This document shows, piece by piece, positions 25,831 through 31,269 of a stretch of 37,055 nucleotides of DNA. The stretch lies in sequence record DRR723986_5535. One strand, written 5' to 3'. Under the pieces are notes generated by a model. That model was not told where the DNA came from. It saw only the letters and a program-made list of their open reading frames with translations, and ran no database searches. The translations under genes and the position numbers were made by a program. Position 1 is the first letter of the stretch; every line of letters begins with the position of its first letter.

Positions 25831-28338
25831 ATGCCAGACAGCGCCCATCCTCCCGCATTTACCTTGCCCGAGCCTTTTGCAGGCTGGTTCGGCGCGCGCG
25901 GCTGGTCGGCGCGGCCGCACCAGCTGGCGCTGGCGGAGACGTCGCTGGCCAGCGAGAGCGCGCTGCTGATCGCGCCGACGGGGGGCGGCAAGACGCTGGC
26001 CGGCTTCCTCGGCAGCCTGATCGAGCTCAGCCAGCAAGGCGTGCGCAGGAATTCCGGCATCCCGGCGCTGCACACGCTCTACATCTCACCGCTGAAGGCG
26101 CTGGCGACGGATGTGCAGCGCAACCTCATGATGCCGGTCGAGGAGATGGGGCTTGGCCTCCGCATCGAGACGCGCACGGGCGACACGCCTTCCCATGTGC
26201 GCCAGCGGCAGCGGAAGACCCCGCCGGACGTGCTGCTGACGACGCCGGAACAGCTGGCCCTGTTCATTGCGTCCGACCATGCGAAGGAATTCTTTGCCGA
26301 CCTGAAATGCGTGATCGTTGACGAGATCCACGCCATCGCCGCCTCGAAGCGTGGGGATTTGCTCTCCCTTGGCCTTGCGACATTGGCACAGTGGGCGCCA
26401 GCCTGCCGCTTCCTCGGCCTGTCCGCCACGGTGCGCGACCCGCATGGCCTGGCCGACTGGCTGGATGTGCGCGGCGACGGGAAGGGCGTACGTATCCTGC
26501 AGGCCGATGGCGGCGTCTCGGCGGATGTCGATATTCTCATTTCAAATCAGCGCATTCCATGGAGCGGTCATTCCGGGCGCTTCGCTGTGCCGGAGGTTTA
26601 CGAAGCCATCAAAAAGGCGACGATGACACTGGTCTTCGTCAACACGCGCAGCCAGGCAGAGCTGATGTTCCAGGAGCTGTGGAACGTGAACGAGGATGGT
26701 CTGCCGATCGCGCTGCACCATGGCTCCCTGTCGCGGGAACAGCGCACAAAGGTCGAGGCGGCCATGGCGGCGGGCAGACTGAAAGCCGTCGTCTGCACCT
26801 CGACGCTGGACCTTGGCATCGACTGGGGGGAGGTGGACCTCGTCATCCAGATGGGCGCGCCGAAAGGGGCCGCGCGGCTGATCCAGCGCATCGGCCGGGC
26901 CAACCACCGGATGGACGAAGCGAGCCGCGCCGTGCTGGTGCCGACCAACCGGTTCGAAGTGCTGGAATGCCGCGCCGCCGAGGCCGCCGTGGAAGCCGGA
27001 GAGATCGACGGCGAGGGCCTGAGGCAGGGCGCCCTCGACGTGCTGGCCCAGCATGTCATGGGCCGCGCCTGCGGCGACGGGTTCGACCTCACCGAGCTCT
27101 ATGACGAGATTGTCCGTGCCGGGCCTTACCAGGATCTGGACTGGGAGGCCTTTGAAAGAATTGTCGATTTTGTCGCCACGGGCGGCTATGCCCTGAAGAC
27201 CTATGACCGCTATCACCGTATCGTGCGCCGATCGGACGGACGCTGGGTGGCACGCACACCGCGGGATGCGCAGGCACACCGGATGAATGTCGGGGCCATC
27301 GTCGAGGCGCCCATGCTGTCTGTCCGGATGGCGAGCTTCATCGGCAAACCCACAGCGGGTGAGCAGCGGGCGGTTCGGGCCGGCCACAAGCTGGGCGAGA
27401 TGGAAGAATACTTCCTCTCGCAGCTGACCCCCGGCGACACCTTCCTGTTTGGCGGCGAGGTGCTGCGCCTTGTCGGCATAGAGGGGCTGGACGCGCTGGT
27501 CGTCCGCGCAACCGGCGACCGGCCCGCGATCCCCAGCTACAATGGCGGCAAGTTCCCGCTGACGACCTTCCTGGCCGACCGCGTGCGCCACATGATCCAT
27601 AACCCCGAGGAATGGCGCCACCTGCCGCAGCCAGTGCAGGAATGGTTCGAGATCCAGCGCCTGCGTTCGGAGATCCCGCCGCCCGACCATCTGCTGGTCG
27701 AAACCTTCCCGCGCGGCGACCGGCACTACCTTGTCACTTACCCCTTTGAAGGCCGCCTCGCACACCAGACCCTCGGCATGTTGGTGACCCGCCGGCTGGA
27801 GCGGATCGGCGCCAAACCGACCGGCTTTGTGGCCAGTGAATACGCCATGGCCGTCTGGGGCATGGAGGACCTCGGCCCTTTAAACATGGAAGAATTATTC
27901 CATCCGGACATGCTGGGCGACGACCTTGAAGCCTGGCTGGACGAGAGCGCCCTGATGAAGCGCACATTTGGCCAGTGCGCGCAGATTTCCGGCCTGATCC
28001 ACCGCAACCTGCCCGGCAAGGAGAAGAACTCAAGACAGGTCAGCTTCTCCACCGATCTCATCTATGACGTGCTGCGCAGCCATGAGCCGGATCACGTGCT
28101 CCTGCAGGCGGCACGACAGGATGCGGCGACGGGCCTCTTGGATGTGCGGCGCCTGGGGGAGATGCTGGTGCGCATCCAGAGCAAGATCGACCATGTGCCG
28201 CTGGAGCGGATCAGCCCCTTTGCCGTGCCCGTGATGCTGGAGATCGGGAAGGAGCCCGTCTTCGGCGCGAGCGTGCAGGACGCGATCCTCAGCGAGGCGG
28301 AAGACACGCTGGTACGCGACGCCATGCGCATCGACTAG
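25831..28338 (+). CDS. lhr: Lhr-core DEXH-box helicase (ligase-associated DNA damage response)
   Basis: APTGGGKT, YISPLKAL, DEIH, SAT, HHGSL, LDLGID, QRIGR; 835 aa. Confidence 0.95.
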   Translation: MPDSAHPPAFTLPEPFAGWFGARGWSARPHQLALAETSLASESALLIAPTGGGKTLAGFLGSLIELSQQGVRRNSGIPALHTLYISPLKALATDVQRNLMMPVEEMGLGLRIETRTGDTPSHVRQRQRKTPPDVLLTTPEQLALFIASDHAKEFFADLKCVIVDEIHAIAASKRGDLLSLGLATLAQWAPACRFLGLSATVRDPHGLADWLDVRGDGKGVRILQADGGVSADVDILISNQRIPWSGHSGRFAVPEVYEAIKKATMTLVFVNTRSQAELMFQELWNVNEDGLPIALHHGSLSREQRTKVEAAMAAGRLKAVVCTSTLDLGIDWGEVDLVIQMGAPKGAARLIQRIGRANHRMDEASRAVLVPTNRFEVLECRAAEAAVEAGEIDGEGLRQGALDVLAQHVMGRACGDGFDLTELYDEIVRAGPYQDLDWEAFERIVDFVATGGYALKTYDRYHRIVRRSDGRWVARTPRDAQAHRMNVGAIVEAPMLSVRMASFIGKPTAGEQRAVRAGHKLGEMEEYFLSQLTPGDTFLFGGEVLRLVGIEGLDALVVRATGDRPAIPSYNGGKFPLTTFLADRVRHMIHNPEEWRHLPQPVQEWFEIQRLRSEIPPPDHLLVETFPRGDRHYLVTYPFEGRLAHQTLGMLVTRRLERIGAKPTGFVASEYAMAVWGMEDLGPLNMEELFHPDMLGDDLEAWLDESALMKRTFGQCAQISGLIHRNLPGKEKNSRQVSFSTDLIYDVLRSHEPDHVLLQAARQDAATGLLDVRRLGEMLVRIQSKIDHVPLERISPFAVPVMLEIGKEPVFGASVQDAILSEAEDTLVRDAMRID

Positions 28339-28482: not shown

Positions 28483-29208
28483 ATGACACCAGCCCTCGCA
28501 AACCGGCGTGAAGAGACCTTCCTGCATCTTGCGGGCGAGCTGCTCGTGCCGCTGCCGGAGGGCGGCCTCTGGTGGCCGGGCCAGCGCCTGCTGGTCGTCT
28601 CCGACCTGCACCTTGAGAAGGGCAGCGCCTATGCCGCGCGCGGCCAGATGCTGCCGCCCTATGACACGGGCGCAACCCTCGCCGTGGTCGAGCGGCTGTG
28701 TGCGCAGCTGATGCCACAGACGATTATCTCCCTCGGCGACAGCTTCCATGACCGGGCGGCGGAGCTGCGCCTGCCGGAGCCTTACGCGGAACGCATTTGC
28801 GCGCTGACCTCCGCCCATGACTGGATCTGGGTGGAAGGCAATCACGACCCCGACCCGCCGGCGCATCTGGGCGGCCGGGCGGAGAAGACTGTGCGGCTAG
28901 GGGCCCTCGTCTTCCGCCACGAGCCGGAAGGGGAGGCAGGCGAGGTTGCCGGGCACCTGCACCCCGTCGCGAAAGTGAAAGGCCGTGGACGGAATGTCCG
29001 CCGCCGCTGCTTCGCCAGCGACGGCGCCCGCCTCGTCATGCCCGCCCTCGGCGCCTTCACCGGCGGCCTCAACGTGCTCGACGACGCCTTCGACAAAGTC
29101 TTCCCGGAGGGCCTGACAGCCTTTGCGCTGGGCGAAGGGAAGGTGTTCGTGCTTTCCGGCGGGAGTTTGCTGGGCGACGTACCTCGCGGGGCCCAGTGGA
29201 AGCTTTAA
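28483..29208 (+). CDS. pdeM: Ligase-associated metallophosphoesterase/endonuclease PdeM (MPE)
   Basis: SDLHLEKG, LPPYDT, LGDSFHD, GNHD, GHLHP, MPALGAFTGGLNV; directly after lhr. Confidence 0.93.
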   Translation: MTPALANRREETFLHLAGELLVPLPEGGLWWPGQRLLVVSDLHLEKGSAYAARGQMLPPYDTGATLAVVERLCAQLMPQTIISLGDSFHDRAAELRLPEPYAERICALTSAHDWIWVEGNHDPDPPAHLGGRAEKTVRLGALVFRHEPEGEAGEVAGHLHPVAKVKGRGRNVRRRCFASDGARLVMPALGAFTGGLNVLDDAFDKVFPEGLTAFALGEGKVFVLSGGSLLGDVPRGAQWKL

Positions 29209-29249
29209 AGAACTGTGGACGAGGTGTCACCGATACTCACCCTTGTATT

Positions 29250-29501
29250 GTCATTTTGGTATAGGATTTGGCTGACAGGCGGGGCCTGTCTCCACCCTTG
29301 GTCTTTGCGGACCGCAGCGTAGCCCATGGCCCACCTGTCAGTTTGAGTTCGCCCTGAACAGTTGACAGGGGCGGGTGTTGGAAGCGCCCGGCCGCGCATG
29401 ACAAGGACAGGCACACCATGCCCCAGAATGTCATCGACATCGATATTGCCATGGACTGGATCGACACCCATTGCCTCGACAGCGGCCGGGCGGGCCGCAT
29501 T
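29250..29501 (+). mobile_element. IS110-family remnant: structured left non-coding end plus first ~28 codons of a degenerate transposase (left boundary approximate)
   Basis: AAGGA SD and ATG 29418 give MPQNVIDIDIAMDWIDTHCLDSGR, two single-base changes (GAC/GGC, ATG/AAG) from the IS110 N-terminal pattern IGIDIAKDWID; preceded by ~150 nt with four hairpins. Confidence 0.6.
29270..29400 (+). ncRNA. Candidate IS110 bridge-RNA-like structured RNA (boundaries uncertain)
   Basis: Hairpins at 29274-29290, 29300-29313, 29334-29369 and 29372-29390, downstream of a -10-like TAGGAT (29262-29267) and upstream of the IS110-like start. Confidence 0.35.
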
Positions 29502-29702
29502 ATCGTTGCCCTTGGGGCAGAGGGAAAAAAGGGCGACCGGGTCGTTGCGAAAACCACGGGCGGCGAAGTGATGGCGAAGGTTCTGGAGCGGAAAAGCAGC
29601 TGCACCATGGCACTCGCCTCGCTGAACCCCGACTATCCCACGCGCGAGTTCAAACCGGCGGAAATTGCCTGGATCGCGCGCGTTTTATGGGCCAGCCAAT
29701 AG
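29496..29702 (+). pseudogene. C-terminal fragment of an S24 peptidase (LexA/CI-like) HTH regulator
   Basis: RIIVALGAEGKKGDRVVAKTTGGEVMAKVL...LASLNPDYP...IAWIARVLWASQ; HTH and the catalytic Ser motif (GDSM) are absent. Confidence 0.75.
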
Positions 29703-29769
29703 GAATTGTTGACTCACATGTGACATCCGGTGCTTTGCAAACGCCTCAAAAGCGGGTGATTACGCGCGC

Positions 29770-31269
29770 ATGACTGACAAGCCCATTGAAGAGCCGACCC
29801 CGCAGGAATCCCTCGACCCGGAAAACTGGGACGAATTCCGCGCGCAGGCCCGTCACATGCTGGATGCCGCCATCGACCGGCTGCAGGACGCCCGCCAGGG
29901 CCGCGTGTGGACCGAGCTGCCGGGCGAGATCAAGGATACGTTGAAGGCGCCGCTGCCCCGCGAGGGCTGGGGCGTGCCGGACGTGATGGGGCGGATGGAG
30001 GCGCTGCTGCCCTATGGCGCGGGCAACACCAATCCGCGCTTCTTCGGCTGGGTGCATGGCTCCGGCACGCCGGCAAACCTGCTGGCCGAGATTGCCGCCA
30101 GCGCGATGAACGCCAATGTCGGCGGGCGCGACCATGGCGCGATCTATGTCGAGAAACAGGTCGTGCGCTGGTGCCGGGAGCTGTTCGAGTTTCCGGAAAC
30201 CGCGAGCGGCATTGTCGTCTCCGGCACGTCCATCGCGACGATCATCGCGGTGAAGGTGGCGCGGGATGCGCGGCTGAACTTCCACAGCCGCAAGGAAGGC
30301 ATCTGCGGGCATGGCCTGGTCGGCTATACTTCGACCGAAACCCACTCTTGCGTCGCGCGGGCGTTTGACCTCCTCGGCCTCGGCACGGACGCGCTGCGCA
30401 AGATCCCGGCGAATGACCGGTTTGAGATCGACATGGACGCCCTCAAGGCCGCCATCGCCGCCGACCGGGAAGCGGGCCTCACGCCCTTCATCGTTATCGG
30501 CACGGCCGGCACGGTGAATGTCGGCGCGATCGACCCGCTGGAGGAGCTCGCCGACCTCGCTGCAGAAGAGAGCCTGTGGTTCCACATCGATGGCGCTTTT
30601 GGATCGCTCGGTGTGCTGAGCGACCGAGTGAAGGACCGGTTGACCGGCGTGAAGCGCGCGGACTCGCTGGCCTTCGATTTCCACAAATGGCTGCACGTGA
30701 ACTACGATGCAGGCTTTGCGCTCATCCGGGACGAGAAACTGCACCGCGCCGCCTTTACTGATCGGCCGGATTACCTGACCGCCAAGGCGCGCGGCCTTGC
30801 GGGCGGTAATCCGTGGCCTGTCGAATATGGCCCGGAGCTGTCGCGTGGGTTCCGGGCCCTCAAAGTGTGGGCGCAGATCGCCGAGTTCGGGACAGACCGT
30901 CTCGGCCGCATGATCGAGCGCAACTGCTACCAGGCGTCATACCTGGGTGAGCAGGTGGAGAAGACGCCGGGCCTCGAACTGCTGGCGCCGGTGGCGCTGA
31001 ACATCTGCTGTTTCCGCTATACCGAGCCCGGCCTCTCCGACGCGGTGCTGGACGCGGTGAACGACGAGATCGTTATCCAGCTGCAGGAGCAGGGGAGCGC
31101 GGCGCCATCGACCACGCGCCTGAAAGGGCGTCTCGCCATCCGCGTGAACATCACCAACCACCGTACCGCCCGCGCCGATCTCGACATCCTGCTGGATGAA
31201 GTGCAACGCATCGCCGCCTCGCCGGAAGTTGCGGCAGTCAAGGAAGCGGCGCTCAAGGATGCGGGCTAG
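29770..31269 (+). CDS. Group II PLP-dependent decarboxylase (aromatic amino acid/glutamate/DABA decarboxylase family)
   Basis: PRFFGWV, VSGTS, GTAGTVNVGAIDP, HIDGAFG, DFHKWL (PLP lysine), SRGFRALKVW. Confidence 0.92.
   Translation: MTDKPIEEPTPQESLDPENWDEFRAQARHMLDAAIDRLQDARQGRVWTELPGEIKDTLKAPLPREGWGVPDVMGRMEALLPYGAGNTNPRFFGWVHGSGTPANLLAEIAASAMNANVGGRDHGAIYVEKQVVRWCRELFEFPETASGIVVSGTSIATIIAVKVARDARLNFHSRKEGICGHGLVGYTSTETHSCVARAFDLLGLGTDALRKIPANDRFEIDMDALKAAIAADREAGLTPFIVIGTAGTVNVGAIDPLEELADLAAEESLWFHIDGAFGSLGVLSDRVKDRLTGVKRADSLAFDFHKWLHVNYDAGFALIRDEKLHRAAFTDRPDYLTAKARGLAGGNPWPVEYGPELSRGFRALKVWAQIAEFGTDRLGRMIERNCYQASYLGEQVEKTPGLELLAPVALNICCFRYTEPGLSDAVLDAVNDEIVIQLQEQGSAAPSTTRLKGRLAIRVNITNHRTARADLDILLDEVQRIAASPEVAAVKEAALKDAG

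Follow-up and report, generated by a model that had tools for sequence, protein, structure and literature searches.

A truncated IS110-family element downstream of pdeM retains its bridge-RNA gene and is probably a decaying relic

Introduction

What remains of a mobile element when its recombinase is gone and the RNA that guided it is still there? This question is raised by a stretch of 37,055 nucleotides (sequence record DRR723986_5535; hereafter the window), in which a short non-coding segment behind the gene pdeM runs into an open reading frame (ORF) that begins like the recombinase of an IS110-family insertion sequence (IS). An original prediction, made from the sequence, took positions 29250–29417 for an orphan IS110-type left end carrying a candidate bridge RNA without its recombinase, and left open whether this RNA was decaying, usable in trans by an intact element elsewhere, or domesticated. 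We compared the segment with intact relatives, modelled its RNA structure, examined its guide segments and followed it through related strains. The window feature is a truncated IS110-family element that keeps exactly its bridge-RNA gene, and it is probably a decaying relic, ordinary wreckage rather than a new device.

Identity and boundaries of the element

By homology to intact copies, window positions 29244 to ~29500 are the left end of an IS110-family element, comprising its first 257 bases. The parts of this end and its junction with host DNA are as follows.

29235–29241, plus strand: left target flank (LT), ACTCACC, directly left of the core
29242–29243, plus strand: core dinucleotide CT at the left junction, placed by the G026 sites GCCCCACC-CT-TGTATTG...AACAGTTG-CT-ATCCCTCCCC and by the empty-site spacing in L013
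29244–29417, plus strand: non-coding left end of the IS110-family element, bridge-RNA gene, 174 nt (identity to L142 and G026; covariance-model match 29240–29417)
29418–29500, plus strand: first 27 codons of the IS110 (DEDD) recombinase gene (alignment with the intact genes of L142, G026 and G012)

The closest copy, L142, lies on a metagenome contig, is apparently intact and is 95.1% identical to window 29235–29500, with a recombinase frame that runs to the end of the available sequence. The host flank of L142 is 84% identical to the genomes G001, G014 and G077, which places this copy in a related species and not in the window's strain. A congeneric genome, G026, holds two intact copies of 1116 bp (90% identity over window 29238–29497), and G012 holds one at a contig end (82% identity). 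These were the two genomes with window-like copies among 61 relatives searched, and the nearest genome, G001, had no copy of the element. A scan of metagenomes with the target-loop pattern returned six loci, L142 among them. Intact relatives of the kind the original prediction had called for thus exist, and they set the left end at 29244; the predicted extent lies inside the feature, which is itself longer, reaching from 29244 to about 29500. IS homology stops at 29497–29501, inside the recombinase gene, and the 37-kb window contained no second fragment of the element, no further recombinase and no right-end sequence.

The two G026 copies share 1157 bp, part of which is target sequence and not element, and the boundaries were drawn by comparing occupied with unoccupied sites. 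An unoccupied site in L013, resembling a repetitive extragenic palindrome (REP), reads GCCCCACC-CCAA-CCCTCCCC..GGGGAGGG, and at the occupied G026 sites the element lies between two CT dinucleotides, beginning TGTATTG after GCCCCACC-CT and ending AACAGTTG before CT-ATCCCTCCCC. Reading TT as the core was considered and rejected, as it would put 8 nt between GCCCCACC and CCCTCCCC compared to 4 nt at the unoccupied site. Only a CT core reproduces the 4-nt spacing, which makes the element 1116 bp long (L009 1507–2622) and places the first base of the left end in the window at T29244. In G026 and relatives, insertion had hit a REP-like palindrome (CCCTCCCC-ATAGTCAT-GGGGAGGG; L009 2623–2653) at its left shoulder; an unoccupied copy of this repeat lies near a damaged element in L013 (minus strand, near 1381).

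The intact element of G026 encodes a 308-aa protein with DEDD_Tnp_IS110 (PF01548) and Transposase_20 (PF02371) domains, and this intact protein, P0001, scores 201.8 bits (cut-off 140) with NF033542, 'IS110 family RNA-guided transposase'. The window has 27 recombinase codons followed by sequence of an S24-family gene, and hence does not hold a functional autonomous IS110-family element.

Structure of the retained bridge RNA

A first alignment comprised 16 left ends, whose recombinases share 39 to 100% identity with that of G026. RNAalifold called four helices in this alignment, with compensatory changes in 9/19 pairs; two further parts, the first module's basal stem and the upper portion of the apical hairpin in the donor loop, were added by hand, giving six helices. 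Across the 16 sequences, 86.8% of cells were paired, compared to 37.5–50.5% with slid partners, and compensatory changes occurred in 18/31 pairs. None of 500 shuffles reached the observed values on four of five measures, and 48/500 did so for the fifth, further pair types. A covariance model, R1, gave 59 matches in the 85 sources searched. The 43 distinct sequences among them, in an alignment that was fitted to the model and so leans towards the modelled structure, had 87.0% of cells paired (35–49% with slid partners) and compensatory changes in 29/30 pairs, and no shuffle out of 500 reached the observed value on any of the five measures.

R1 matched the window once, at full length (29240–29417, 146.1 bits; intact close relatives score 149–157). 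Every one of the 59 matches fell in a recombinase-bearing locus or in the window, and in the 34 elements with a tabulated recombinase start the match lay on the recombinase strand and ended just before that start. The same arrangement is seen in the window, where the match ends at 29417 and the recombinase start codon lies at 29418. The original prediction staked itself on homologues upstream of IS110 recombinases and on covariation of the stems. Both expectations were borne out, the former also by 25/29 matches fetched in a scan of the genus, and a full-length match followed by only 27 recombinase codons is what an orphan left end with its bridge RNA should look like. As in IS110-group bridge RNAs, the segment occupies the left non-coding end, upstream of the recombinase and in the same orientation, and folds into two covarying stem-loops with internal loops and apical hairpins:

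29273–29340, plus strand: target-binding loop; basal stem 29273–29288 with 29327–29340, apical hairpin 29300–29313; helices 1–4, compensatory
29353–29411, plus strand: donor-binding loop; closing stem CCTG/CAGG, 29353–29356 with 29408–29411, apical hairpin 29368–29395; helices 5–6

The internal loop of the target module has TGTCTCCACCCTT on its 5' side and GCAGCGTAGCCCAT on its 3' side, that of the donor module AACAGTTGACA and GCATGACAAGGA, and a short linker joins the two modules. Neither RNAalifold nor the model alignment gave a conserved 5' stem-loop ahead of the target loop, where 29 nt separate the start of the left end from the stem. In the window 29/31 modelled pairs were standard, whilst L142 had no non-standard pair. 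Judged by sequence and covariation, the bridge-RNA region of the window is complete, with both loops and all four guide segments.

This fold retains two of the four stems originally proposed. GGTC-TTTGCG-GACC (29300–29313) is the apical hairpin of the target loop, with compensatory changes in 4/4 pairs, and CGGGTGTT..AGCGCCCG forms the upper part of the conserved donor-loop apical hairpin (29368–29395). The other two are alternative pairings that the relatives do not support. In GACAGGC-GGG-GCCTGTC, relatives pair GACAGGC with a distal CCTGTC (29334–29339) as the basal stem of the target loop. In the long bulged stem CCTGTCAGTT..GAACAGTTGACAGG, the 5' half serves as the 3' strand in the stem of the target loop, varying without compensation, and the 3' half is a sequence-conserved guide, AACAGTTG, that fits the right end of the element.

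Folding energy carried no information for the plus strand. There the 168 nt had a minimum free energy of −65.1 kcal/mol (z = −0.38 versus shuffles), which is thermodynamically not distinct, so that the structural support comes from homology and covariation; the minus strand gave z = −2.06. No Rfam 15 family reached its gathering score in the region. The weak matches were to sX15 on the minus strand (23.2 bits against 55) and to tpke11, an E. coli small RNA, at 20 bits against 43; the latter, on the plus strand at 29357–29420 in the donor-loop region, is probably due to chance.

Guide segments and their targets

Four guides were defined for bridge RNAs by Durrant et al. 2024 (PMC11208160), of which the left and right donor guides (LDG and RDG) serve the donor; the left and right target guides are abbreviated LTG and RTG. 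Their positions in the window are:

29290–29298, plus strand: LTG, CTCCACCCT, which equals left flank plus core in relatives
about 29314–29322, plus strand: RTG, within GCAGCGTAG, on the 3' side of the target loop
29357–29364, plus strand: LDG, AACAGTTG, which equals the last 8 nt of the G026 right end
29396–29407, plus strand: RDG, GCATGACAAGGA, whose reverse complement matches the core and left-end start (CCTTGT)

Guide assignment was examined across 29 distinct elements, counting a shared run of at least 7 nt as a match and comparing each element's own DNA with that of the other elements. LTG matched the upstream DNA of its own element in 17/29 cases (others 43/812, wrong-orientation control 6/29), and the reverse complement of RTG matched its own downstream DNA equally often, 17/29 (others 76/812, wrong orientation 3/29). 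LDG matched downstream DNA in 24/29 elements, compared to 224/812 for others and 1/29 in the wrong orientation, its contrast being weaker because LDG is conserved across elements. The result for the reverse complement of RDG against upstream DNA was weak (own 6/29, others 51/812, wrong orientation 0/29); discontiguous pairing of RDG has been described for IS621 (PMC11208160). Family-wide, then, the target guides fit insertion sites and the donor guides fit element ends, as in IS110-group bridge RNAs.

For the window, such matches are limited to the left side, the right target flank and right end having been deleted. The LTG of G026 (CCCCACCCT) agrees with its flank and core at 9/9 positions, and that of the window (CTCCACCCT) with ACTCACC-CT at 6/9 (4/7 for the flank alone; 8/9 by eye with a 1-nt gap). 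The idea that the loops would match flank and donor junction holds for the family, and only in part for the window's own LTG. By eye, the reverse complement of the window RDG shares CCTTGT with the flank, core and left-end sequence CCCTTGT (29240–29246). The target loop of the window encodes about CTCCACC-CT-ACGCTGC. Its donor loop reads AACAGTTG / ATGACAAGG, fitting the element's own ends, and its donor guides are the same as in L142 and G026.

Deletion junction and neighbouring genes

The right-hand limit of the element coincides with damage to a host gene.

28483–29208, plus strand: pdeM, ligase-associated DNA damage response endonuclease (TIGR04123 220.2 bits, cut-off 150; Metallophos)
29495–29501, plus strand: deletion junction in the microhomology CCGCAT(C) (intact IS, intact S24 gene and window compared)
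29502–29702, plus strand: C-terminal third of a helix-turn-helix (HTH)-S24 repressor-like gene, pseudogene fragment (Peptidase_S24 E = 3.3e-9; DNA 93% identical to the complete G001 gene)
29418–29702, plus strand: chimeric 94-aa ORF, recombinase stub plus S24 tail (last ~67 residues) (ORF list)

The placement originally proposed, between pdeM and an IS110-like start, was correct: TIGR04123 identifies pdeM at 220 bits, and the ORF at 29418 begins like an IS110 recombinase. Homology with G001 breaks off at 29211, just past pdeM, and restarts at 29487; the 5' part of an S24-family gene of 191 aa lies in the intervening 704 bp of G001. The counterpart in G077 has a 215-aa S24 version and an extra 227-aa ORF, with a pdeM–S24 spacer of ~1190 bp (704 bp in G001). 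The three parental and derived sequences at the junction are GGGCCGCATCGAG (intact IS, L142), GACCGCATCATCG (intact S24 gene, G077) and GGGCCGCATTATCG (window). The break lies inside the 7-nt microhomology CCGCATC, the signature of an illegitimate deletion, which took away ~0.86 kb of the element together with the right end and, from the S24 host gene, the 5' two thirds.

Since the microhomology encodes R-I in both parents, the two genes are fused in frame. The resulting 94-aa chimeric ORF had no NCBIfam match and is most likely not a gene; automated annotation will probably report a protein here. Residues 28–89 match only positions 55–115 of the 116-position Peptidase_S24 profile (E = 3.3e-9). 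The GDSM motif of the G001 and G077 proteins, a segment that in the S24 family holds the catalytic serine, lies upstream of the junction and is hence lost from the window. One metagenome strain (X4) carries a 2-nt insertion, GA, behind 29524 that breaks the chimeric frame. A tblastn search with an intact recombinase aligned window 29418–29651 to residues 1–81 at 47% identity; we read the part past codon 27 as alignment run-on and not as a longer recombinase remnant, because the DNA there and the G001 S24 gene share 93% identity.

Directly upstream of pdeM lies a gene for an Lhr-type helicase (DEAD, Helicase_C, WH_Lhr, DEAD_assoc; window 25831–28338), and lhr-pdeM is the usual ligase-associated DNA-damage-response neighbourhood. 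In congeners (L092/G001 1899–2820; L096/G077 294–1715), an HTH-S24 LexA/UmuD-like gene of 191–215 aa sits between lhr-pdeM and a gene for a pyridoxal phosphate-dependent decarboxylase. This putative repressor has been lost in the window's lineage (window 29209–29770).

Promoter and expression

The only promoter-like feature of the left end is the −10 region:

29260–29267, plus strand: −10-like TATAGGAT (TATAGG / TAGGAT), read from the sequence, with TAGGAT at 29262–29267

No sigma-70-type promoter was called anywhere in the left end, and the slot 17 nt upstream of TAGGAT (29239–29244) holds ACCCTT, in agreement with the earlier observation of a −10-like TAGGAT with no well-spaced −35. The G026 right end finishes ...GTTG, followed by CT. 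A circle junction would accordingly read TTGCTT, 17 nt, TAGGAT, in which TTG would be the tip of the right end, CT the core and T the first left-end base, so the −35 box probably lay in the right end that has been lost. This is in line with PMC11208160, which states that excision restores a promoter spanning the core, and that at a right end–left end junction deprived of the −35 box recombination is abolished unless the bridge RNA is given in trans (Durrant 2024). At position 29261 the window has A, where L142, G026 and G012 have G; this relic-specific change turns TGTAGG into TATAGG, with TGG before it, a more consensus-like −10 than in the three intact copies. No terminator was predicted between pdeM and the stub, and a weak terminator-like hairpin lies at 29482–29498. 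Six RNA-labelled sequencing runs contained just 0.06–0.16 of the sampled words of the stretch.

Decay marks and strain variants

Changes specific to the window copy were called against L142, G026 and G012. Two of them break conserved pairs of the bridge RNA, namely 29333 G>A, which leaves C29280 opposite A, and 29394 C>G, which disrupts G29369-C and is the sole G-G cell of that pair in the 16-sequence alignment. Further relic-only changes were 29261 G>A, 29324/29325 and 29412 A>C. In the recombinase stub, all three relic-specific changes (G7D, V8I, K12M) were non-synonymous, with no synonymous change; G7 is the glycine of the IGVD motif conserved in relatives.

Contigs from four metagenome runs (X1–X4; three studies) were aligned to window 28900–30100. 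Two of them spanned both stub junctions, X1 record 1 (29001–29575, 9 differences) and X4 record 17 (29068–29588, 15 differences, 2 gaps), whilst X2 records 5 and 6 bridged one junction each with zero differences, and X2 may be the window's source sample. No meaning attaches to gaps in contig cover, such as X2 at 29295–29385. The contigs thus show the stub fixed in a lineage whose strains diverge by 1.5–3%. X4 differs at 29286 C>T, 29330 C>T and 29385 C>T, each converting G-C to G-U, and at 29333 A>G, the state of the intact copies. X1/X3 differ at 29292 C>T and 29294 A>C, both in LTG, and at 29356 G>C, which alters a G invariant in 16/16 aligned relatives.

Related relics in the genus

R1 matches were found in 19/80 genomes of the genus, using the stricter filters of Infernal, and in none of the six genomes closest by flank identity (G001, G014, G077, G072, G037, G081). 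In 25 of 29 fetched matches, an IS110 recombinase match followed that was not cut short inside the locus: 16 were full length or nearly so, six were cut by contig ends and three had the recombinase in two pieces (L113, L124, L133). The remaining loci comprised three without a recombinase match, L114 (G083:C37), L126 (G096:C1) and L132 (G093:C8), and one cut at residue 81, L131 (G018:C501, 81 codons). Recombinase-less left ends are hence a regular decay product (4/29). L114 fuses IS positions 3–108 to 797–831. In L013 / L105 (G066:C6), a copy with 97% identity, the first 91 nt (promoter, LTG, apical hairpin and RTG) and 54 nt inside the recombinase gene are missing; it is the mirror image of the window stub, a recombinase gene without the target-binding half of its bridge RNA. 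A full-text literature search for orphan, truncated or remnant bridge RNAs, of whose matching papers only a small part was read, gave no description of recombinase-less bridge-RNA stubs, and supplementary files may hold cases.

Origin and fate of the stub

The reading that best accommodates these observations is decay. An IS110-family element (1116 bp, CT core, 308-aa DEDD recombinase) would have inserted about 35 bp downstream of pdeM, and a later deletion mediated by the microhomology CCGCATC would have run from recombinase codon 27 into the neighbouring HTH-S24 repressor-like gene. The remaining 174-nt left non-coding end, which encodes a complete two-loop bridge RNA, would since have drifted as neutral DNA. 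Without recombinase, right end and −35 box, the stub should neither move nor be properly switched on. Amongst the fates first envisaged, decay is the one favoured by the broken pairs, the lost −35, the non-synonymous stub changes and the sister-strain variants.

Several observations nevertheless weigh against a purely neutral relic. The change at 29261 brings the −10 region nearer consensus, and with no predicted terminator between pdeM and the stub, read-through transcription would be possible; integrated IS621 copies are themselves described as expressing bridge RNA weakly (Hiraizumi 2026, PMC13626964). The stub, with both junctions, persists in contigs of at least two further studies, in strains diverged by 1.5–3%. 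Strain variants in the stub fall on paired positions in 5/7 cases, three of which keep pairing as G-U. A simulation with the local mutation spectrum gave 0.004–0.01 for at least four pair-keeping changes, unpolarised, and about 0.03 for three kept pairs when 29333 was polarised as a break by hand, in a test that was post hoc and involved very few events. These variants could hint at structural constraint or at mutational bias in GC-rich stems, and are too few to separate the two. Substitution density in the stub was not above that of the flanks (3/256 versus 6/319; 4/256 versus about 11/265), a comparison too small to decide. Finally, the search for an intact partner covered only the 37-kb window and related genomes.

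The strongest competitor, although itself unlikely, is an orphan guide usable in trans: the stub would be weakly transcribed, from its own −10 or by read-through from lhr-pdeM, and its RNA loaded by the recombinase of an intact sister element, conferring a second target specificity or recombination between the left junction of the stub and intact copies. In E. coli, bridge RNA functions in trans (Durrant 2024, PMC11208160), and in the window both loops and the four guide segments are present, at a model score only about 10 bits below intact copies. Donor guides identical to those of L142 and G026 would make a sister recombinase–donor pair compatible, and an intact-looking, 95% identical copy does exist in a related species. 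The improved −10, the lack of a predicted terminator, the retention of the stub across diverged strains and the three G-C to G-U variants that keep pairing point the same way. Set against this are the two broken conserved pairs, the further invariant base lost in a sister strain, the missing −35, the absence of any member of the RNA family from the six closest genomes compared and of any other copy from the 37-kb window. A live 'spare guide', in which low-level RNA steers a sister element or rearrangements to CTCCACC-CT-ACGCTGC-like sites, is less likely again.

Domestication, whereby a structured 3' untranslated region of pdeM or the 94-aa chimeric protein has acquired a host function, appears very improbable. 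It could draw on the in-frame fusion, which keeps the ribosome-binding region of the recombinase, and on the fixation of the stub in several strains. However, the 2-nt insertion behind 29524 breaks the frame in one strain, the S24 fragment covers only profile positions 55–115 and lacks the GDSM serine segment, and the ORF matches no NCBIfam family; the closest congeners are arranged differently, with the S24 gene intact, and there is no sign of conservation beyond strain level. This option of the original prediction thus gained no support. An origin outside IS elements, as a host riboswitch, small RNA or REP-type structured repeat that resembles an IS end, can practically be dismissed: the sub-threshold Rfam matches to sX15 (minus strand, 23 bits versus 55) and tpke11 (20 versus 43) and the minus-strand fold (z = −2.06) are outweighed by 90–95% identity to intact elements, unbroken from the core dinucleotide into the recombinase gene, and by RNA relatives that sit upstream of IS110 recombinase genes. 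This continuity and the recombinase-linked relatives refute it.

A decaying relic has practical consequences for annotation. An apt label for the region would be that of a truncated IS110-family element retaining a bridge-RNA remnant. Gene status is not warranted for the 94-aa ORF, and the neighbour of lhr-pdeM, the HTH-S24 repressor-like gene, should be recorded as destroyed in the window's lineage. The covariance model for this compact (1.1 kb) IS110 subgroup, whose bridge RNA falls below every Rfam 15 threshold, and the count of recombinase-less left ends (4/29 fetched matches in the genus) can be reused. If orphan bridge RNAs were used in trans, such stubs would be hidden modifiers of IS110 target choice, and if the spare-guide reading were true, selection acting on the IS family would maintain bridge-RNA genes that lack a recombinase.

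Comparison with known systems

The present family resembles the bridge RNA of IS621 and the IS110 group, as set out in PMC11208160, in most respects. In both, the RNA is encoded in the non-coding left end, upstream of a DEDD recombinase that reads in the same direction, and forms two stem-loops with internal loops, and the core is CT. The first loop carries left flank plus core on its 5' side and the complement of core plus right flank on its 3' side, and the second fits the right-end tip and left-end start. The target is a REP-like palindrome (here in G026), and a −35 is supplied, here probably too, only by the right end at the circle junction. Differences lie in the smaller element (1116 bp with a 308-aa recombinase), in an RNA of about 144 nt, expected to start near 29274 at the base of the target stem, compared to 177 nt in IS621 (PMC11208160), in the LDG core positions, which are AC here and do not fit CT, and in the loss of recombinase and right end from the window copy. 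The IS621 consensus described in PMC11208160 also has a 5' stem-loop, of which the present family has no conserved counterpart, although this stem-loop is not clearly a defining feature. Half-match recombination has been reported at IS110 loci (bioRxiv 10.64898/2026.08.14.744561).

Closer in kind to a stub are the ssr9 modules of ISPpu9 in Pseudomonas putida. PMC12288879 describes IS110-family elements that target REP sequences together with orphan ssr9 modules, in which a small-RNA-bearing piece of an IS110/IS1111-family element stands alone in the chromosome, and a deleted module remnant is also described. Those modules differ from the present stub in having both terminal boxes and minicircles, and are proposed to be MITE-like (miniature inverted-repeat transposable element) and mobilisable in trans (PMC12288879). 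The window stub has a left junction only and no right end, and is thus neither a module of this kind nor excisable as a unit by the normal reaction.

IS621/IS110-group bridge RNA is reportedly also the subject of work by Hiraizumi et al. in 2024. A further likeness concerns sX15 (RF02234), a Xanthomonas plasmid small RNA with a partner, asX7, and 10 homologues in Stenotrophomonas maltophilia K279a (Schmidtke et al. 2011, PMC3300014). Its end-to-end minus-strand match in the window (29262–29427) shares blocks complementary to CCTGAACAGTTG and GTAGC..GGCC, and a complementary partner with multiple homologues, as described in PMC3300014, is what would be expected of an IS. At 23.2 bits on the minus strand, against a gathering score of 55, the segment is not a member of that family; sX15 and asX7 may be the two strands of an IS110-type left end.

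The nearest parallel is the ordinary truncated IS or solo end, in which one end is kept, the rest is lost together with host DNA across a microhomology, and point changes follow. Nothing material sets the window feature apart from such remnants, the one special point being that the piece retained is exactly a guide-RNA gene.

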